From: Actinomycetota bacterium
Lineage (GTDB): Bacteria; Actinomycetota; Acidimicrobiia; IMCC26256; PALSA-555
Length of the DNA stretch: 64,000 nt
Assembly (NCBI GenBank): GCA_016870355.1
Contig: VGBR01000001.1
Location: 57,574 to 121,573, forward strand
Direction of reading: 5' to 3'
Shown: piece after piece, positions 8,129 through 50,284 of the stretch
Layout of the letters: each line of letters opens with the position of its first letter
Position numbering within the stretch: the first letter of the stretch is position 1
Translations under genes and position numbers: made by a program
The notes under the pieces: model-generated
What the model was told of the DNA's origin: nothing
Seen by the model: the letters and a program-made list of their open reading frames with translations, nothing else
Database searches by the model: none

Positions 8129-8286
8129 CCCGAGCACATTTCTCTTCAACAGGTGCGCACTGACGCGCGCGCTCGAAAGGTAAAGGCTCGAGACTGCGAG
8201 TCAAGCGCGGGCATCCGAACTGCCGATCTCTCCTTTCGTAGATCGTCAGTGGGCACGTCTGGGCACATCTACATCTGGGTGGAAAA

Positions 8287-8817
8287 ATGGGTGGAGGGGC
8301 ACGCATGCAGCGTCGGCGTCGAATCGTGGTGGCAGCGCTTGCACTCACGCTCGTGCTGGGTGCGGCGGCGTGCAAGCCGAAGCCCGCGCCGGCGCCGCCT
8401 CCGCTTCCGCCGGTGCTCAACTGCTTCGACAGTGGGACCGGCGCACTGACGATCGCGCAGTGCCACATCAACTACGCGACGTATTCGATCGACCCGAATC
8501 CGTTCGCACAGACCGTGGCCGCCACCATCGCCGCCTCTGGCACCTGCGCCAACCTCGGCTCCAAGCACACGCCCGGCGCGACGCTGCTCGCCGTGTATGC
8601 GGGCGCCACGAGCGTGGGCGAGAACCTGTTCTGCTCGTGGACCTCGTCGGGCATCTGCCCGTCGAACGCTCAAGGCGCGACCAGCGCGCTCAACGGATGG
8701 CTGAACAGCCCCGGGCACAAGGCGAACATGGACGGCTTCGCCGGGGCATCGGTCGTCGGCGGGGCGGCGTGCAATGCGGGTGTGTACGTCGCGGTCGCTC
8801 AGTTCCACCGTCCGTGA
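8287..8817 (+). CDS. CAP/SCP-domain lipoprotein
   Basis: Signal plus lipobox [24 protein letters not shown]-like motifs GENLF and [11 protein letters not shown]. An alternative ATG at 8305 has the better GGAGGGG RBS. Confidence 0.75.
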
Positions 8818-10558: not shown

Positions 10559-10779
10559 CACGGCCAATGCTCCGGGCGATCTCGCCGGACGCCTCCGAAG
10601 AAGAGGTCGCGGCGATCGTGGCGGCGATTGCGGCCTCGTCCGGCGGCGGTGCGGCACCAACGCCCGATCCCCACCTGGACGAATGGATGCGGGCCGCGCG
10701 GCTGGTGTCACGACGGGTGGGACGGGTGCGAGGACCGTGGCGGTTCTCGGGTCGAGTCGCGCGCCGCACTCGGCCCTGA
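10555..10779 (+). CDS. Acyl-CoA carboxylase epsilon subunit
   Basis: Small ORF whose GTG overlaps the pccB stop (GTGA). [15 protein letters not shown] is the typical epsilon-subunit signature. Confidence 0.7.
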
Positions 10780-10786
10780 TCCCGGG

Positions 10787-11899
10787 ATGACCCCGGACAA
10801 TCCGGAGCTCTTCACGGTCGGCGCCGACGAGGCCGTCGTCACTTTCTCCACCTCTCCGGGCGAGACCGTCACGACCCGCGTCGGTGGCCGCGAGTTCACG
10901 ACGACTGGTCCGCACCACATCGTGCGGGCCACCGACCTCGAGCCCGACACGGAGCACTCCCTTGCCGTTGATGGTGTGTCGCCGAGCGAGCGGCTCCCGT
11001 CGAACTTCCGAACCTTGGCCGAGCCTTCCGGGCGACTTCTTGCCACCGTGGCGACGGCCAACGACGTGCACTTCGGCGAAGCGGAGTGCGGCCACCTGGG
11101 TCCGCCGCACGATGACATCGGGCCGTTCTTCTCGACTGCACCAGGCGAGCCGCCGTATCCGGAGATCATGAACCGTGCGGTGGTGGCGGAGATGCGCGCC
11201 CTCGATCCTGATGCAGTGGTGGTGAAGGGCGATCTCACGAACGTCGGCTCCGAGCAGGAGTACGCCGCGTTCCTCGCGACGTACGGCGCGTTGGGTGAGC
11301 GAATGCACCACGTGCGCGGCAACCACGACGCGATGCAAGACCCGACGATGGCGATCGAGGACGCGCCGTACACGGTAGACCTGCGCGGCGTGACGCTCGC
11401 GGTGCTCGACACGGTGATCCCGGGCACCGACGGCGGACAACTGCCACGCGACCAGGTGCAATGGCTCGACGACCTCGCCGCGGACGCGACCGATCCGGTG
11501 CTCGTGTTCGGTCACCACTACGTGTGGGACCTGCGTGCTGAGACGCGCAATCCCCACACGTTTGGCATCAACCCCGACGACTCCGAAGCGCTCGCCGATG
11601 TCGTCCGGCGCCGGGAGGCCATCGCGGGCTACTTCGCCGGGCACACCCACCGGAACCGCATCCGCCGGTACCCCGAGGTGCGCTCAGTTCCCTTTGTCGA
11701 GGTCGCCTGCACCAAGGACTATCCCGGTGCTTGGGCCGAGTACCGCATCCACGAGGGGGGCTACACCCAGGTGGTGCGGAGAGTGACGGAACCGGCGGCC
11801 TTCGCCTGGGCCGAGACCACCCGAGGGATGTTCGGTGGGGTCTACACCGACTACGCCCTCGGCGACCTCCAGGAGCGCTGCTTCACCCAAGCCTTCTGA
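10787..11899 (+). CDS. Metallophosphoesterase
   Basis: Motifs ANDVHFGE, VVKGDLTN, VRGNHD, GHHY and GHTHRN. ATG 10787 chosen because the track start at 10628 overlaps the epsilon subunit. Confidence 0.8.
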   Translation: MTPDNPELFTVGADEAVVTFSTSPGETVTTRVGGREFTTTGPHHIVRATDLEPDTEHSLAVDGVSPSERLPSNFRTLAEPSGRLLATVATANDVHFGEAECGHLGPPHDDIGPFFSTAPGEPPYPEIMNRAVVAEMRALDPDAVVVKGDLTNVGSEQEYAAFLATYGALGERMHHVRGNHDAMQDPTMAIEDAPYTVDLRGVTLAVLDTVIPGTDGGQLPRDQVQWLDDLAADATDPVLVFGHHYVWDLRAETRNPHTFGINPDDSEALADVVRRREAIAGYFAGHTHRNRIRRYPEVRSVPFVEVACTKDYPGAWAEYRIHEGGYTQVVRRVTEPAAFAWAETTRGMFGGVYTDYALGDLQERCFTQAF

Positions 11900-12003
11900 C
11901 CAGGGCCTGGACGCGACGCGTCCCGAGAAGGGTCGGCGTAGAGAGTCCCGGCCCAGCCCAGCCAGGTGCCCCAACGCCCTCCTCGGGACGCGGTCCGGCG
12001 AAA

Positions 12004-12167
12004 GTATCCACCACCTTCCACAGGTTTTCCACTCCCATCTGGGAGTTCTCCACTCTCTAGGGGCAGTTCTCCACCGCGTCGGGCCTGTCTGTCCACAGGT
12101 GGGCCGGGTTCCCTCCACGCCCTCGCCGGCTCTTTCCCCAAGTTGTCCACCGCGGCCTGTGGAGAAC
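12004..12167 (+). promoter_or_regulatory. Array of nine DnaA-box-like TCCAC motifs (eight direct, one inverted)
   Basis: GTATCCACC 12004, CCTTCCACA 12014, TTTTCCACT 12025, GTTCTCCAC 12045, GTTCTCCAC 12066, CTGTCCACA 12089, CCCTCCACG 12111, TTGTCCACC 12143, and TGTGGAGAAC 12158 (inverted). Confidence 0.5.
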
Positions 12168-12238
12168 TCGGCCGCCGGAGCGCGGCGCCAGACCGCGCGC
12201 GAGACTGCCGCCATCTGGCGTGCCAACGGGGGGACCGA

Positions 12239-14056
12239 ATGGCCGGAATCACGAGCGACGACCTCGCCGCCGAGGTGGCGGGGCACACGGTCACCAGCCG
12301 CTTCCGCGACACCGTCCAAACCCATGGCGACCGCGTCGCTCTGCGTTGCAAGGACCCGAGCGCCGGCGACGACGCCTGGATCGAGCTGACCTGGCAGCAG
12401 TACGCCGACCAGGCCTGCCGACTGGCCGCTGCCCTTGCCGAGCTCGGAGTCGAGAAGGGGCAGCGCGTCGTCGTGATGATGCGCAACTGCATCGAGTTCC
12501 ACGTCGCCGACGTCGCCGTCATGCTCCTCGGCGCGACGCCCGTCTCCATCTACAACTCATCGGCGCCCGAGCAGGTCCAGTACCTCGCGGAGCATTGCGG
12601 TGCCGTCGTTGCGATCGTCGAGGACGTCGACTTCCTCGAGCGCGTGCTGAAGGTGCGCGACGAGCTCCCCGCGTTGCAGAACATCGTGGTCATCAACGAC
12701 GACGGCCGCGCGCCGGGTGACGTGCTGCACTGGCATGACCTCGTGCAGCGTGACCCGATCGATCTCGACGGCGCGGCGTCGGTCGCCGAGCCGAGCGACA
12801 TCGCGACGATCATCTACACGTCGGGCACCACGGGTCCGCCCAAGGGTGTCGTCCTCGATCACGCGAACGTCGTGTGGACGGTGGAGAGCCTGCTGCGGGT
12901 CTGGGACGACGTGCCGTACTTCAGTCGCCTCGTGTCGTACCTGCCGATGGCGCACATCGCCGAGCGGATGGTGTCGCACTACCAGGGCATCGTCGGCGTG
13001 TTCGAGGTCACGACGTGTCCCGAGCCGTCGCAGGTCGCGTCCTTCCTTCCGCACGTGCGACCGCAGATCATGTTCGCCGTCCCGCGCGTGTGGGAGAAGA
13101 TCCACGCCGGGGTGCTCGCGCTCGCCGGCGCCGATCCGAACCAACAGGCGATGCTCGATGCCGCGCTGCCGATCGGGGAGAAGGCGGCCGAACACCGCGC
13201 GCGCGATGAAGAGCTTCCTGCCGACCTTGCGGCTGAGTACGCCGAGAAAGCCAAGCCCGTCGGCGACTTCGTGCTCGGGCTGCTCGGACTCGATCAGGTG
13301 AAGGCCGCGATCAGCGGTGCCGCACCGATCCCCGTCGAGGTCTTGAAGTTCTTCCGCTCGCTTGGTCTGGAGATGTCGGAGATCTACGGGCTCTCGGAGA
13401 CATCCGGCCCGATGACGTGGGAGCCGTTCAAGGTGCACCTCGGCACCGTGGGTCCACCCATTCCGGGTGAGGAGGTTCGGCTCGCGGACGACGGCGAGGT
13501 GCTCGCCCGTGGCGGCAACATCTTCCGCGGCTACCTCAACGATCCGGAGCGGACGGCCGAGGCGCTCGATGACGACGGGTGGCTCCACACCGGTGACATC
13601 GGGGTGTTCGACGACGCCGGCTATCTCAAGATCGTCGACCGCAAGAAGGAGCTCATCATCACAGCGGGCGGCAAGAACATCTCGCCCGCGAACCTCGAGT
13701 CAGCGCTGAAGTCGTTCCCGCTGATCGGTCAGGTCGCGGTGATCGGCGACGGCCGTCCGTTCGTCTCCGCGTTGGTCGTGCTCGATCCCGACGTGGCGCC
13801 GACGTGGGCAGCGAAGCAAGGACTCTCAGGTACGTCGCTCGCCGAGCTCGCCGAGGATCCGACGGTGCTCGAGGAGATCGAACGCAACGTGAAGGAAGCG
13901 AACAAGCGCTTCTCGAACGTCGAGCAGATCAAGAAGCACACCGTCCTCGGCGCAGAGTGGCTCGCCGACTCCGACGAGCTCACCCCGACCATGAAGCTCA
14001 AGCGCCGCGGCGTGAACACCAAGTACGCCGAAGAGATCGAGGCCATGTACTCCTGA
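12239..14056 (+). CDS. Long-chain fatty-acid--CoA ligase (AMP-dependent synthetase)
   Basis: AMP-binding motif IIYTSGTTGPPKGV, YGLSETSGP, GWLHTGDIG and ITAGGKNISP. Start at ATG 12239 (MAGITSDDL). The upstream part of the track ORF covers the motif array and has non-coding composition. Confidence 0.9.
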   Translation: MAGITSDDLAAEVAGHTVTSRFRDTVQTHGDRVALRCKDPSAGDDAWIELTWQQYADQACRLAAALAELGVEKGQRVVVMMRNCIEFHVADVAVMLLGATPVSIYNSSAPEQVQYLAEHCGAVVAIVEDVDFLERVLKVRDELPALQNIVVINDDGRAPGDVLHWHDLVQRDPIDLDGAASVAEPSDIATIIYTSGTTGPPKGVVLDHANVVWTVESLLRVWDDVPYFSRLVSYLPMAHIAERMVSHYQGIVGVFEVTTCPEPSQVASFLPHVRPQIMFAVPRVWEKIHAGVLALAGADPNQQAMLDAALPIGEKAAEHRARDEELPADLAAEYAEKAKPVGDFVLGLLGLDQVKAAISGAAPIPVEVLKFFRSLGLEMSEIYGLSETSGPMTWEPFKVHLGTVGPPIPGEEVRLADDGEVLARGGNIFRGYLNDPERTAEALDDDGWLHTGDIGVFDDAGYLKIVDRKKELIITAGGKNISPANLESALKSFPLIGQVAVIGDGRPFVSALVVLDPDVAPTWAAKQGLSGTSLAELAEDPTVLEEIERNVKEANKRFSNVEQIKKHTVLGAEWLADSDELTPTMKLKRRGVNTKYAEEIEAMYS

Positions 14057-14070
14057 CGGAGGGCTGCGGA

Positions 14071-14718
14071 TCAACATCGTGCCGGCGGATCGGGTCCGGT
14101 CCAGCTCGCGGCGGGGACCAGCCGCTTCCTGGTGCCCAGGCCTTCGAAGCGCAGGTTCTTACGGTGCTTCGCGCGGTGGTCGGGCTTGCAGGCGAGGTTG
14201 AGGTTCGAAAGCCGAGTCTGGCCGCCCTCGGACCAGGGCTGGTTGTGGTCGGCCTCGAGGTTGGTGGTCGCGTCGCAGCCCTCACGCACGCAGTGCTGGT
14301 AGAGCTCGTGGAGTGCGGTCATGAGCACGGCGGGTGGGCGGCGGTCGAGGTGCACGACCTTGTGCACATCCACGCCGTCGGTGACGACGGCCTTGAGGAA
14401 CGCGTCTTGGGCCATGCGCAGCGCGACATGCACGGGAATCGATCCCGCGCCGACGATCTCGCAGATCTCACCGGGCTCGGTCCACCCGCGCAGCGCGTCC
14501 AGGTCGATCCGCACGATCACGGAGGTGTCGGGGCCACCGCCCTTGGCCGGCGGTCGCGCTCCGTCGGCCGCGTCGGCCATGGCGAGCAACCCATCGAAGG
14601 CGTAGGCACCAGCGCGCTCGTACTCCGCACCGATCTTGTGCACGTTGTCGAAGATCTCGTTGGCGTAGGGCTCGATCTGCTTCATGATGCGAGCGGTCAG
14701 GTCGAGGGGTCCGCGCAC
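14071..14718 (-). CDS. HNH endonuclease, DUF222/REP13E12-like C-terminal part
   Basis: HNH region CVREGCD...EADHNQPWSEGG.T.L.NL...C..DHRAKH. Preceded by IRIDLDAL.G...GEI.G.G.IP, typical of the DUF222 family. GTG start at 14718. Confidence 0.75.
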   Translation of the reverse strand: MRGPLDLTARIMKQIEPYANEIFDNVHKIGAEYERAGAYAFDGLLAMADAADGARPPAKGGGPDTSVIVRIDLDALRGWTEPGEICEIVGAGSIPVHVALRMAQDAFLKAVVTDGVDVHKVVHLDRRPPAVLMTALHELYQHCVREGCDATTNLEADHNQPWSEGGQTRLSNLNLACKPDHRAKHRKNLRFEGLGTRKRLVPAASWTGPDPPARC

Positions 14719-14960
14719 GTCGATGCGCCCAGCGCCCTCATCGTCTTCCCAGTGCCGAACTTCTCGGTGAGCTGACGGGCGCGGGCACCGTCGTGGACGT
14801 CGGGATCGAGCTCGGCCACGCCCACGCGGAGAAGCTCGAGCGCTTGGTCGACCGCTGCGGACACGGCACCTCCCCGAGGCCAGGTGGTCTCGAACTGCGG
14901 GGAAGTGCGACCATCAAGATAGCGAACGTACGTTCGTATTGCAAACAGTAAACGGCGCAA
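14697..14960 (-). pseudogene. N-terminal segment of the DUF222/HNH protein in a different frame (probable frameshift)
   Basis: High-GC3 frame encoding VSAAVDQALELLRVGVAELDPDV...ARQLTEKFG. It overlaps the HNH ORF by 22 nt in another frame. The flanking sequence at 14930-15000 has unusually low GC. Confidence 0.4.
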
Positions 14961-15021
14961 AGATCCTGGTCAGGAGCCTTTTTGAGAATTTGTTGAGAAG
15001 GCGCCCGCGGCGCGCCGGAGG

Positions 15022-17016
15022 TCAGCCCGTGCGGGCGAGCCTTCGGCGGTGCTCGATGGCGAGCTCGACGACGTCGGCGATGATCTCGGACGTCTTGTAG
15101 TCCTTCGGTGTGTACACCCGTGCCACGCCGGCCTGTTCGAGCACGGTCCGATCCGCGTCGGGAACGATCCCGCCGACCACGACCGGCACGTCGGTGCCGT
15201 TGTCGTGCATCAGCCGCACGGTCTCGGGCACGAGCGAGAGATGCGAGCCGGACAGGATCGAGAGCCCGACCACGTCGACGTCCTCGTCGCGCGCCGCCGA
15301 CGCGATCTGCGTCGGCGTGAGACGGATGCCCTGGTAGATCACCTCGAAGCCGGCATCGCGCGCCGCGACCGCGATCTGCTCCGCACCGCTCGAGTGCCCG
15401 TCGAGCCCGGGCTTGCCGACGAGCATCCGCAGCGGACCGCCGAGCTCGGCAGCCGCGGCCTTCACTCGCGCTTGCACAGCCACGAGGTCATCCGTCGGTG
15501 CGACGGCGACCCCGCCGATCCCCGTCGGGGCGCGGTACTCGCCGAACACCTCGCGCAACGCGTCGGACCACTCGCCGACGGTCCCACCTGCGCGTGCCAG
15601 CTCGATCGTCGCGGCCATCAGGTTCTCGTCCGTCGCGGCCGCGTCGCGCAGGCGGTGGAGAGCCTTGGCCGCGGCCTTCCCGTCGCGATCGCGTCGCCAC
15701 TGCTCGAGACCCTCGACCTGCGCGGCCTCCGCCGCCGGATCGACGACGAGGATGTGGTCGACGTCGTCGGTGACCAAGGGTGAGGCGGCCGTCTCCGTGA
15801 AGCAGTTCACGCCGATCACCTGGAGATCACCGGACTCGATCTTGCGGACCCGCTCGGCATGACTCTGCACGAGCCGGCCCTTCATCGCGTCGGTCATCTC
15901 GAACGCGCCGCCACCGTCGAGCACCCACGCCAGCTCGGCTTCGGCTGCGTCGGCGAGCTCCGCCGTCTTCGCCTCGATCACGTGCGAGCCGTCGAAGATG
16001 TCGCCGTACTCGAGGAGATCGGTCTCGAAGGCCAGCACCTGCTGCACCCGCAACGACCACTGCTGGTCCCATGGACGGGGAAGCCCGATCGCCTCGTTCC
16101 ACGTTGGCAGTTGGATCGCGCGCGCACGGGCATCCTTCGACAGCGTCACGCCGAGCGTCTCCAGCACGATGCGTTGCACGTTGTTCTCGGGCTGCTCCTC
16201 GGTGAGCCCGAGCGAGTTCACCTGCACGCCGTAGCGGAAGCGGCGCAGCTTCTCGTCGGTGACGCCGTAGCGCTCGGCCGTGAGTCGGTCCCACAACCGT
16301 GAGAAGGCCCGCATCTTGCACGTCTCCTCCACGAACCGGATGCCGGAGTTCACGAAGAACGAGATGCGGCCGACGACGTCGGGCATCTCGTCGTCCGGGA
16401 TCTGTCCCGACTCCCTCACCGCGTCGAGCACGCCGAGTGCCGTCGCGAGCGCGTACGCGATCTCTTGGACGGGTGTCGCGCCCGCCTCTTGCAGGTGGTA
16501 CGAGCACACGTTGATCGGGTTCCACTTCGGGACGTGCTTCACCATGTGACAGATCACGTCGACGGTGAGGCGGCGCGACGGCTCCGGACCGAAGATGTAG
16601 GTGCCTCGGCTCAGGTACTCCTTGACGATGTCGTTCTGGGTGGTGCCGGCGAGCGTGTTCGGATCGACGCCCTGCTCCTCGGCGAGCGCGAGGTACATAC
16701 CCAGCAACCACATGGCCGTGGCGTTGATCGTCATCGAGGTGTTCATCTCGTCGAGCGGGATGCCGTCGAAGAGGGTGCGCATCTCGCCGAGGTGCGGCAC
16801 CGGCACGCCAACCTTGCCGACCTCGCCCCTGGCCAGCACGTGATCGGGGTCGTATCCCGTCTGTGTGGGCAGGTCGAAGGCGACCGACAGTCCCGTCTGC
16901 CCCTTGGCCAGGTTGGTGCGGTACAGCTCGTTCGAGGCCTTCGCTGAGGAGTGCCCCGAGTACGTCCGCATCACCCACGGACGCTCACGCTCCGTCATGC
17001 CCACATTCTCCCGCAC
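15022..17016 (-). CDS. ecm: Ethylmalonyl-CoA mutase-like fused B12-dependent acyl-CoA mutase (MeaA/Ecm type)
   Basis: 664 aa. RPWVMRTYSGHSSAKASNELYRTNLAKGQTGLSVAFDLPTQTGYDPDH carries the MeaA-type AGHS-like signature. The C-terminal B12-binding domain has GLDGHSSGAEQIA. Proximity to ccr supports the call. Confidence 0.8.
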   Translation of the reverse strand: MRENVGMTERERPWVMRTYSGHSSAKASNELYRTNLAKGQTGLSVAFDLPTQTGYDPDHVLARGEVGKVGVPVPHLGEMRTLFDGIPLDEMNTSMTINATAMWLLGMYLALAEEQGVDPNTLAGTTQNDIVKEYLSRGTYIFGPEPSRRLTVDVICHMVKHVPKWNPINVCSYHLQEAGATPVQEIAYALATALGVLDAVRESGQIPDDEMPDVVGRISFFVNSGIRFVEETCKMRAFSRLWDRLTAERYGVTDEKLRRFRYGVQVNSLGLTEEQPENNVQRIVLETLGVTLSKDARARAIQLPTWNEAIGLPRPWDQQWSLRVQQVLAFETDLLEYGDIFDGSHVIEAKTAELADAAEAELAWVLDGGGAFEMTDAMKGRLVQSHAERVRKIESGDLQVIGVNCFTETAASPLVTDDVDHILVVDPAAEAAQVEGLEQWRRDRDGKAAAKALHRLRDAAATDENLMAATIELARAGGTVGEWSDALREVFGEYRAPTGIGGVAVAPTDDLVAVQARVKAAAAELGGPLRMLVGKPGLDGHSSGAEQIAVAARDAGFEVIYQGIRLTPTQIASAARDEDVDVVGLSILSGSHLSLVPETVRLMHDNGTDVPVVVGGIVPDADRTVLEQAGVARVYTPKDYKTSEIIADVVELAIEHRRRLARTG

Positions 17017-17049
17017 CTGGCCCGACGAGGCCGCAGCGGGACCGGTCCA

Positions 17050-17904
17050 CTACTTGGAGTAGTCGTAGAAGCCTTGGCCGGTCTTTCGGCCGAGACGGCC
17101 GTCGCCGACCATCTGCTCGAGCATCGGCGCGGGCACGTAGTTCGGGTCCTGGTACTCGTCGTGCAGTGCTTCGAGGATCGACAGGCTCGTGTCGAGCCCG
17201 ACGAGGTCGAGCAGCTCGAGCGGACCCATCGGGAAGTTGCAGCCACCCTTCATCGCCGCGTCGATGTCGTCACGCGTCGCGAGGCCGGCGTCGAGCGCCT
17301 TCACCGCGTTGTTGAGGTACGGGAACAGCAGTGAGTTCACGATGAAGCCGGCGCGGTCGATCACGTCGACCACGGTCTTGCCGCACGCCTCCGCGAACGT
17401 GCGTGCACCGCTCACCGTGGCGGAACCGGTCTTCTCCGCGCGGACGATCTCGACGAGAGGCATCACCGGCGCGGGGTTGAAGAAGTGGATGCCACAGACG
17501 CGCTCGGGGTTCTTCGTCGCGGCCGCGATGTCACCGACCGAGAGCGTGGACGTGTTCGTGGCGAGGATCTTGGCGTTCGCACACACGTCGTCGAGATCCG
17601 TGAAGAGCTGCTTCTTGACGGTGATGTCCTCGACGACGGACTCGAGCACGAGGTCGCAGCTCGACAGCTCGGAGAGGTCGGTGACTGCGCGCACGCGACC
17701 GCGGATCTCTGCGCTCGCAGCGTCGTCGAGCTTGCCCTTCTCAACCTGCTTCGCGAGTGACTTCTCGAGGCCCGCCACCATCGCGTCGACCGCCTCCTGT
17801 GTGCGGCTGCGCAGGGCGACATCCATCCCGGCCTTCGCGACGACTTCGGCGACGCCGGAGCTCATGATCCCGGACCCGACGAGTCCAACCTGCTTCACGG
17901 TCAT
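17050..17904 (-). CDS. hbd: 3-hydroxybutyryl-CoA dehydrogenase
   Basis: 284 aa. NAD fold VGLVGSGIMSSGVA, IHFFNPAP.M.LVE, and a C-terminal GRKTGQGFYDY. Confidence 0.9.
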   Translation of the reverse strand: MTVKQVGLVGSGIMSSGVAEVVAKAGMDVALRSRTQEAVDAMVAGLEKSLAKQVEKGKLDDAASAEIRGRVRAVTDLSELSSCDLVLESVVEDITVKKQLFTDLDDVCANAKILATNTSTLSVGDIAAATKNPERVCGIHFFNPAPVMPLVEIVRAEKTGSATVSGARTFAEACGKTVVDVIDRAGFIVNSLLFPYLNNAVKALDAGLATRDDIDAAMKGGCNFPMGPLELLDLVGLDTSLSILEALHDEYQDPNYVPAPMLEQMVGDGRLGRKTGQGFYDYSK

Positions 17905-17970
17905 TGGGTGGTACCTCCGACAGCTCTCTGGAGCCGGTGCCCGACCCGGGCTGGCGAGTGGGTACCCGAC

Positions 17971-17986
17971 GTTACCGCGCGGTAAC
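17971..17986. promoter_or_regulatory. Perfect 16-bp palindrome GTTACCGCGCGGTAAC upstream of hbd (candidate operator)
   Basis: Loop-less perfect palindrome 67 bp upstream of the hbd start codon, in the 102-bp gap after the J-domain gene. Confidence 0.3.
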
Positions 17987-18006
17987 CAAGGCCGCTCGGC
18001 TCGTGA

Positions 18007-48572: not shown

Positions 48573-48760
48573 CGCCGATACCATGACAGGCCCCCCAACG
48601 GGGGACGAACCCACGAACACACCTGTGGAAGGCCTCGCTTGACGAGGTCGTTATGGTACGGAGAGCGGCCGCCCCCCGACCGCCGTGACCAGGGAAGATC
48701 CACCGCCGTCGGGCGGTTGTCCACAAGCTGTACCCGCCGCTGAGACCCCGAAAGGCATTT

Positions 48761-50191: not shown

Positions 50192-50284
50192 TGGCGGAGG
50201 CGGCAGGAATCGAACCCACCGGACAGGTCAACCCGTCCCACTCGTTTTGAAGACGAGGGGGGCCACCAGGCCCCGTTCACCTCC
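50192..50284 (-). tRNA. selC: tRNA-Sec (anticodon UCA)
   Basis: Reverse complement is GGAGGTGAAC GGGGCC TGGT GGCCCC C CTCGT CTTCAAA ACGAG T GGGACGGG TTGA CCTGTCC GGTGGG TTCGATT CCTGC CGCCTCC G CCA. It has a 6-bp D stem with a 4-nt loop, a long variable arm and anticodon TCA, all hallmarks of bacterial tRNA-Sec. 93 nt. Confidence 0.9.

Follow-up and report, generated by a model that had tools for sequence, protein, structure and literature searches.

What does a dense, regularly spaced array of short repeats do in front of a lipid-metabolism gene? The 64-kb stretch of DNA analysed here (contig VGBR01000001.1 of an Actinomycetota bacterium, referred to as the window) contains a 339-bp intergenic gap at 11900-12238, with a metallophosphoesterase gene on its left and an acyl-CoA ligase gene on its right, in which the sequence TCCAC occurs nine times. 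An earlier note on this DNA had described the motifs as helically phased and similar to DnaA boxes, and had offered three readings: a DnaA-titrating or regulatory cluster, a relocated origin component, or an operator array serving the ligase. The nine motifs turn out to form a single module of a larger conserved unit, in which their constant partner, not seen in the note, is a structured hairpin at 11912-11995. Judged by its conservation, the array is functional and acts at the level of DNA. DnaA would be the simplest identity of the protein that binds it, and the best of the three readings appears to be the first, a DnaA-box cluster which is regulatory or belongs with datA, the DnaA-box clusters (DBCs) of other bacteria and the DnaA-reactivating sequences (DARS).

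Eight TCCAC cores lie on the + strand (12007, 12017, 12028, 12049, 12070, 12092, 12114 and 12146), and the ninth is inverted (- strand, 12159-12163); all nine motifs are thus where they had been reported, between 12007 and 12163. The core-to-core steps are 10, 11, 21, 21, 22, 22 and 32 bp, followed by 13 bp to the inverted copy. The reported multiples of a helical turn hold, but two of the individual spacings given earlier, 20 and 23 bp, do not; the units had been quoted in shifting registers, and the cores give 21 and 22. The eight same-strand cores fit a period of 10.7 bp. Their Rayleigh R is 0.97; in 1000 random placements no period of 10-11 bp gave a value as high. The density of motifs is equally unusual: 0.37 cores are expected per 160 bp, the Poisson probability of nine or more is 2.6e-10 (about 2e-7 when corrected for the number of window positions), and the biggest TCCAC cluster in 300 shuffles of the window had six members against the nine observed. 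Chance is excluded for both the cluster and its phasing.

Each core is part of a 9-bp box. Boxes 1 (GTATCCACC, 12004-12012), 2 (CCTTCCACA, of the TCCACAGG type, 12014-12022) and 3 (TTTTCCACT, 12025-12033) follow one another closely on the + strand. They are followed on the same strand by box 4 (TTCTCCACT, 12046-12054), a lineage-specific extra box 21 bp from box 3; box 5 (TTCTCCACC, 12067-12075), 21 bp from box 4; box 6 (CTGTCCACA, 12089-12097), 22 bp from box 5; and box 7 (CCCTCCACG, 12111-12119), which is the weakest, 22 bp from box 6. Box 8 (TTGTCCACC, 12143-12151) lies 32 bp from box 7 and is the head-to-head partner of box R (TTCTCCACA, 12158-12166, - strand), an inverted consensus DnaA-type 9-mer separated from it by a 6-bp gap. 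Scored against TTNTCCACA, the array consists of one perfect 9-mer (box R) and five boxes with one mismatch, all within 140 bp; this bears out the resemblance to DnaA boxes. The array supplies six of the 18 sites in the whole window that have at most one mismatch to TTNTCCACA. Perfect matches to TT[A/C/G]TCCACA number two in the window.

Outside the gap the motif is unremarkable. TCCAC/GTGGA occurs 148 times in the window on both strands, no more often than in shuffled sequence, and it is therefore not globally enriched. The perfect, isolated TTGTCCACA at 48717-48725, which had been pointed out earlier, is real and lies 37 nt before the GTG start (48762) of a sigma-70-family gene; a single such site per 64 kb fits chance (0.36 expected). 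A small pair of sites is found at 8279-8295, where two GTGGA cores 12 bp apart (GTGGAaaaatggGTGGA) lie just upstream of a 170-aa open reading frame (ATG at about 8305) with no Pfam hit on record. In sequence it is similar to boxes 3 to 1 read along the - strand.

Conservation was examined in two sets of loci. One comprised 80 loci encoding relatives of the ligase; the other was collected with a pattern taken from the 3' arm of the hairpin and comprised at least 119 metagenome contigs from soils and lakes. Statistics on the unit refer to 119 unique units, or to sets of 94, 95, 103 or 105 units, among the matches listed. The nearest genomes to the window are uncultured Acidimicrobiia, and the exact ligase protein is present on public lake-metagenome contigs of 258 and 306 kb. 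Among the 80 ligase loci, the same place holds 5-8 TCCAC cores where the ligase is at least 69% identical, two or three in Acidimicrobiia that are more distant, and none in the remaining loci. Ten of the closest Acidimicrobiia genomes have at least five boxes at this place, and nearly all contigs found with the hairpin pattern show the hairpin followed by the same box block. The array is thus kept in relatives, as the earlier note had asked to be checked. The surrounding gene order is also maintained: a carboxyltransferase gene, the metallophosphoesterase gene, the unit and the ligase gene, then genes for a methylmalonyl-CoA-mutase-like protein and a 3-hydroxyacyl-CoA dehydrogenase on the other strand. 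A profile search found one copy of the hairpin per locus and no second copy in the window. GTTCTCCAC is not a dispersed repeat, and a dispersed or mobile element is ruled out by the single copy per locus and the constant gene order.

On the + strand the order within the unit is the hairpin, about 10 variable nucleotides, a fixed three-box block, zero to six extra boxes and one inverted box. The three-box block, cAGTATCCACCat / tcTCCACAGG / TTTTCCACc, corresponds to boxes 1-3 with steps of 10 and 11 bp, and the distance from the end of the hairpin to box 3 is 32-34 nt in 85 of the 94 units scored. The extra direct boxes are of the form gTT(C/T/G)TCCAC(C/A) and are placed in steps of about 10.6 bp. 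Between direct boxes of the 119 unique units, spacings of 10-11 bp occur 80 times and spacings of 21-22 bp 72 times; there is one case between 13 and 19 bp. The last direct box is 13 bp from the inverted box in 58 of 95 units and 11-12 bp from it in another 29. Distances from box 3 to box R fall at 11-13, 22-24, 32-36, 45-46, 54-55 and 66-67 bp, and at 131 bp in the window, which again fits steps of about 10.6 bp. Where boxes are 21-22 bp apart, their spacers have no sequence in common, so it is the spacing itself that is conserved. Such steps indicate a constraint of double-stranded DNA (B-DNA and not RNA), with all sites on the same helical face. Extra boxes have arisen independently in different lineages, in one orientation or the other: the L152 locus has at least nine TCCACA boxes, L119 has five inverted boxes at 11/11/23/11 bp, and L185 and L188 have six boxes each.

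The hairpin (11912-11995) is an inverted repeat which folds with z = -2.8 and is a candidate small RNA or terminator; 102 unique instances of it were found. Its basal helix, P1, is formed by arms at 11917-11932 and 11977-11992 (CCCGAGGAG / CUCCUCGGG plus extensions). P1 is almost invariant, and one position covaries (GC 9, AU 8, GU 2, UA 1); the 3' arm was fixed by the search pattern, and covariation there cannot be judged. A conserved central segment follows, in which GUAGAGAG (11938-11945) is opposite CCCCAACG (11969-11976). The terminal hairpin, P2, varies in sequence and in length (about 14-60 nt) but is found in all 26 of 26 diverse copies, with a mean z of -1.5. Alignment with MAFFT and RNAalifold recovered P1 only; P2 became visible when each sequence was folded singly. 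In the central segment, GUAGAGAA facing CCCCAACG gives three A.C oppositions on the + strand, which form an internal loop; on the - strand these become G.U pairs in a near-continuous helix. The - strand hairpin therefore folds better, and does so in 87 of 92 copies. Of 89 copies, 10 have a U-rich tail after the hairpin on the - strand, and one has such a tail on the +.

The hairpin matches no catalogued family. No Rfam model reached its gathering score anywhere in the window, and a search of 11850-12300 at E <=10 gave chance-level hits only (E >=0.8), none of them on the hairpin. A terminator scan of 11700-12400 found none. An integron attC-like hairpin (RYYYAAC ... GTTRRRY) is ruled out because the motif order is wrong, and a small open reading frame is ruled out by a conserved in-frame TAG and by differences in P2 length that are not divisible by three. 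The hairpin is thus a new and well-populated candidate RNA motif outside Rfam, with covariation support. A palindrome at 11908-11924 (GGACGCGACGCGTCC) overlaps its 5' base. GGACGCG is repeated at the 3' base (11987-11993), which makes alternative pairings possible. Part of the lineages conserve the left copy.

Is the unit a part of the ligase gene? The ligase gene (12239-14056, + strand, ATG at 12239) encodes a FadD11-like long-chain fatty-acid-CoA ligase with Pfam domains AMP-binding and AMP-binding_C_3; it scores 545 bits against the NCBIfam FadD11 model, which is below the cut-off. It is the usual but dispensable right-hand neighbour of the unit. At L097/L182/L114, L185, L186, L100/L102, L152 and L162 the ligase is missing from the locus while the hairpin and boxes are intact. 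On the right side of ligase-less loci there is a gene which ends towards the unit and which, by eye, looks like one for a membrane GGDEF-type protein and not for a regulator; at L162 the unit lies between two convergent gene ends, its right neighbour being the 3' end of a mutase gene. The flanking proteins of the ligase-less loci share 61-81% identity with each other and are as diverged among themselves as they are from those of ligase-bearing loci; the unit has therefore long persisted in the absence of the ligase. The reverse situation is found in other Acidimicrobiales (Microthrixaceae, Iamia and others), which have the ligase without the unit. Since each occurs without the other, the unit is autonomous and the description 'operator of the ligase gene' is insufficient. 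The proposal of an operator serving the ligase alone is thus not supported, with the unit kept in at least five diverged lineages that have no ligase at the locus.

The likeness to DnaA sites is strongest in the inverted box. In relatives it reads TTATCCACA (34 units), TTGTCCACA (25) or TTCTCCACA (21), so that 80 of 103 units have a perfect TT[A/G/C]TCCACA. The high-affinity DnaA box is TTATCCACA in E. coli and B. subtilis and TTGTCCACA in M. tuberculosis and S. coelicolor (PMC4285127, Table 1); the variation of box R is confined to position 3, which is the position that differs between the DnaA boxes of those species. At oriC, boxes tolerate a shift by a whole helical turn but not by part of a turn (PMC4285127). 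Direct boxes are mostly TTTTCCACC/T, GTATCCACC and TTCTCCACC, with one or two mismatches each, typically C at position 9, and would therefore be weaker sites; the middle box of the minimal unit is TTTTCCAC[C/T/G]. The converging boxes are not complementary at position 3 (TTG versus TTC in the window, TTC versus TTA in many soil lineages), and it is therefore as separate sites, not as the two sides of an RNA stem, that they are kept. No other TCCAC cluster is found at the promoters of the surrounding lipid-metabolism genes, which argues against a pathway-specific regulator.

We know of no actinobacterial regulator motif, apart from that of DnaA, that matches TCCAC; the PHO-box, CRP, LexA and other actinobacterial motifs are not known to fit it. 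The MtrA motif, GTCACAGCG (PMC4285127), does not match TCCAC either. It is probable that DnaA binds box R. In the literature consulted, no connection was found between DnaA boxes and actinobacterial acyl-CoA ligase genes, or between such boxes and Acidimicrobiia.

Among known systems, the closest in geometry is DARS1. In the DARS core, boxes I and II face opposite ways and are 5 bp apart, and box III points as box II does (PMC6868365). The core of E. coli DARS1, read from NC_000913.3, agrees with this; it is TTATCCACT-N5-TGTGGATAA-N3-TGTGTATTA. On the other strand it becomes TAATACACA-N3-TTATCCACA-N5-AGTGGATAA, which is direct-N3-direct (consensus)-N5-inverted and spans 35 bp. The minimal unit here, TTCTCCACA-N2-TTTTCCACC-N6-TGTGGAGAA, is direct-N2-direct-N6-inverted (consensus) and has the same 35-bp span. 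Both thus have three 9-bp boxes in direct-direct-inverted order, an opposite pair 5-6 bp apart (gaps of 6 and 2 bp here versus 5 and 3 bp), and one consensus box flanked by imperfect boxes (PMC6868365). Both also lie outside oriC in a gap with a promoter, a putative one in the case of the unit; for DARS1 it is the gap between bioD and uvrB. The unit differs in that many lineages add one to six phased boxes and the hairpin is always attached. To our knowledge, IHF and Fis are absent from Actinobacteria, and we know of no sites for either in the unit. DARS promotes release of ADP from ADP-DnaA (PMC6868365), and the likeness of the unit to it is one of geometry; DARS elements have so far been described in E. 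coli and its relatives.

Other comparisons concern box number. The datA locus, the DBCs and S. coelicolor D78 are, like the array, non-origin multi-box clusters conserved in position. The datA-like clusters of B. subtilis (DBCs) and S. coelicolor repress untimely initiation (PMC5742627), and S. coelicolor has the same TTGTCCACA box type (PMC4285127). These clusters are defined by deletion phenotypes, whereas the unit is known from sequence. We know of no description of one-face phasing, a single convergent consensus box or an attached hairpin for datA, DBCs or D78. DnaA is also an established regulator of non-replication genes, as outlined in PMC13438810. As at DnaA-regulated promoters (E. coli dnaA, nrdAB and uvrB P3; P. 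aeruginosa gidA), boxes lie in or just upstream of putative core promoter elements, and the consensus box lies about 45-55 bp upstream of two putative divergent starts. The unit differs from these promoters in having far more boxes, up to nine and phased, and its product would be a structured small RNA.

In an unbiased alignment of 105 units, the best-conserved columns past the hairpin are CA.T.T (A 100%, T 97%) and TTTTCCA (95-99%). The two blocks are 17 bp apart, and the - strand reads TGGAAA-N17-gATAcT, which is sigma-70-like. In the window this corresponds to a -35-like hexamer inside box 3 (TGGAAA, 12026-12031, - strand; TTTCCA on the +) and a -10-like hexamer overlapping box 1 (GATACT, 12003-12008, - strand; AGTATC on the +), and both may be promoter elements. 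The start predicted for this leftward promoter is 3-4 nt away from the base of the hairpin; such an arrangement would account for the constant hairpin-to-box distance. The constraint on boxes 1 and 3, a matter the earlier note did not reach, appears to suit core promoter elements more than it does DnaA boxes. The conserved A and T could instead belong to a cAgTaT on the + strand, which is followed 6 nt downstream by a conserved A. The case for a leftward promoter over boxes 3 and 1 is thus evenly balanced. On the right, ligase-bearing loci have a conserved GCGC-TACATAT or GCGC-GAGACT about 30-40 bp beyond the inverted box, followed by the start codon; these sequences are conserved only where the ligase is present. 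In the window the GAGACT of GCGC-GAGACT (12201-12206, + strand) is a candidate -10 element of the ligase gene. In some soil loci (L183, L191, L193, L199 and L103) the ligase frame apparently starts at a GTG right after the inverted box (GTGGATAACGTGACG), which leaves no space for a promoter between box and gene there.

Taking these features together, we lean slightly towards a model in which DnaA, by occupying the phased boxes, controls both the hairpin transcript and the ligase promoter. DnaA would bind the consensus box R first. As active DnaA rises, it would spread cooperatively into the phased weak boxes, arranged head-to-head at the nearest one and head-to-tail over the others. Boxes 1-3 would overlap the leftward promoter TGGAAA-N17-GATACT (- strand), which would start at the hairpin base, and DnaA occupancy would thus set transcription of a hairpin RNA of about 90 nt. 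Where the ligase is present, DnaA might also influence a rightward ligase promoter about 40 bp beyond box R. The sites, up to nine in number, could in addition sequester (titrate) DnaA or recycle it, given the DARS1-like geometry of the three-box core; such titration or DARS-like effects would be an additional or alternative output. A bolder version, in which the unit is an autonomous replication-control locus of the DARS/datA type in a deep actinobacterial lineage, altering or titrating the nucleotide state of DnaA and tied to transcription of the hairpin RNA from a box-embedded promoter, is distinctly doubtful. If true, it would be the first element like DARS to come from outside the proteobacteria and also the first small RNA gene under DnaA control, inside a lipid-metabolism cluster.

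Several observations weigh against control by DnaA, or against parts of the model. The box consensus is taken from other phyla and may not be the preference of DnaA in this lineage. Most direct boxes have C, not A, at position 9. Of the 105 units, just 54% have A at position 7 of box 1 and just 69% have C at position 8 of box 3, and the credible DnaA sites of many lineages are limited to box R and box 2. The consensus box of DARS1 is the middle one (box II), whereas here it is the outer inverted box. As for the promoter, T is absent from the first -10 position on either strand in every lineage (105 units), and a consensus promoter scan of 11700-12400 found nothing; TGGAAA-N17-gATAcT of the window scores 8/12 and is under the threshold. 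The strand of the hairpin, when assigned from counts of G.U against A.C, is mixed in P1 and shows no preference in P2, and only the central segment favours the - strand.

Could another DNA-binding protein occupy the array? The likeness to DnaA boxes would then be coincidental, and the unit would be an operator for, e.g., an OmpR/PhoB-type response regulator which controls the ligase, the hairpin transcript or both. Regulators of this type bind head-to-tail to 11-bp direct repeats, and direct repeats of 10-11 and 21-22 bp also typify operators of the OmpR family, such as PHO boxes. Streptomyces PhoP arrays, as far as we know, share both the 11-bp direct repeats and the addition of extension units in helical phase; their repeats are of the GTTCACC type versus TTnTCCAC here, and we know of no inverted consensus site in them. 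The preference of the direct boxes for C at position 9, their conserved flanking G's (gGTTnTCCACCg) and the extended TCCACAGG common to box R and box 2 would also suit a different protein. So would the finding that related Acidimicrobiales use a TetR-type palindrome at the same ligase gene: at L019-L028, L039, L055 and L059, TTGACCGnnCGGTCAA lies about 100-200 nt upstream of the ligase start and is shared with a divergent thiolase gene, which indicates that the ligase is normally under transcription-factor control. Against such a regulator, the best-conserved site is an exact 9-bp DnaA consensus in most units, the motifs of other actinobacterial regulators known to us do not match, and an inverted terminal site is atypical for OmpR-type operators. 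The unit also persists without the ligase, and the surrounding lipid gene cluster has no further sites. A regulator encoded nearby is ruled out, with no DNA-binding regulator gene within 10 kb on either side. This explanation is thus possible but unlikely.

The repeats might alternatively work in RNA, as part of a long 5' leader or a noncoding RNA in which UCCAC (GUGGA on the other strand) binds a protein or pairs alternately with the inverted copy to control the ligase, and the hairpin is the sensor or terminator. The hairpin does have a genuine structure, boxes 4 and 5 each show perfect complementarity of 10-11 nt to the inverted copy, and eight of the nine copies are on the strand of the downstream gene. 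Some lineages have the ligase start codon directly after box R (GTGGATAACGTG), so the promoter there would be upstream of the boxes. Spacing quantised at about 10.6 bp in more than 100 lineages, even with unrelated spacers, is hard to reconcile with RNA, as are the lack of covariation at position 3 of the converging boxes and the multiplication of boxes in either orientation. The unit is moreover kept without a downstream gene on that strand, and Rfam gives no match. A role at the RNA level is very unlikely, and DnaA acting on DNA remains the preferred reading.

DnaA-type boxes that are clustered at a constant syntenic position, whatever their neighbours, also recall a replication origin, or a relocated part of one, that fires or assists initiation away from dnaA. 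In the window, cumulative GC skew has its minimum near the array, at 13-18 kb, where the skew of genes on both strands changes sign (permutation p ~0.03), but the signal is weak and comes from 64 kb only; the minimum (13000-18000) is recorded here as unexplained and not as support. Origins in known Actinobacteria are linked to dnaA/dnaN. A six-frame pattern scan of the window and of 1.57 Mb of related loci found no DnaA signature peptide (Walker-A GxGKTHL or domain-IV DHTTV-type). The gap has no AT-rich element, its lowest-GC 25-mer having 48% GC versus 28% elsewhere in the window, and it contains no TA(A/G) DnaA-trios. The flanking genes converge on the site instead of pointing away from it. 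Known actinobacterial origins have 13-19 boxes, whereas many lineages here keep only one good box. With no dnaA, AT-rich unwinding element or DnaA-trios nearby, the unit is not considered to be an origin; the idea of a relocated origin component is extremely improbable and is set aside.

Control of DnaA by sites outside the origin is known in detail only in E. coli (datA, DARS1 and DARS2), with partial knowledge in B. subtilis and Streptomyces. The unit is a candidate site of the datA/DARS kind, conserved over more than 100 uncultured actinobacterial lineages, and its architecture is unusually clean: a consensus box, a phased weak array, a DARS1-sized core and a rigidly attached hairpin. Through it the generality of DARS/datA-type control would become directly testable. 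If the promoter model holds, replication status would be linked to small-RNA expression and to fatty-acid activation.

Other features of the window can be noted. The metallophosphoesterase gene to the left of the unit (10628-11899, + strand) is of the calcineurin type. The window also holds dnaX-ybaB-recR and ask-asd. A large signal recognition particle RNA is encoded at 90-354, beside dnaX-ybaB-recR, and a selenocysteine tRNA at 50196-50284 on the - strand. To the right of the ligase gene, a Cheo/LexA-type palindrome (CGAACGTACGTTCG, 14923-14936) lies upstream of a 55-aa gene (14697-14864, - strand) and an HNH-domain gene (14071-14685, - strand); this suggests that the gene pair may be under SOS control.

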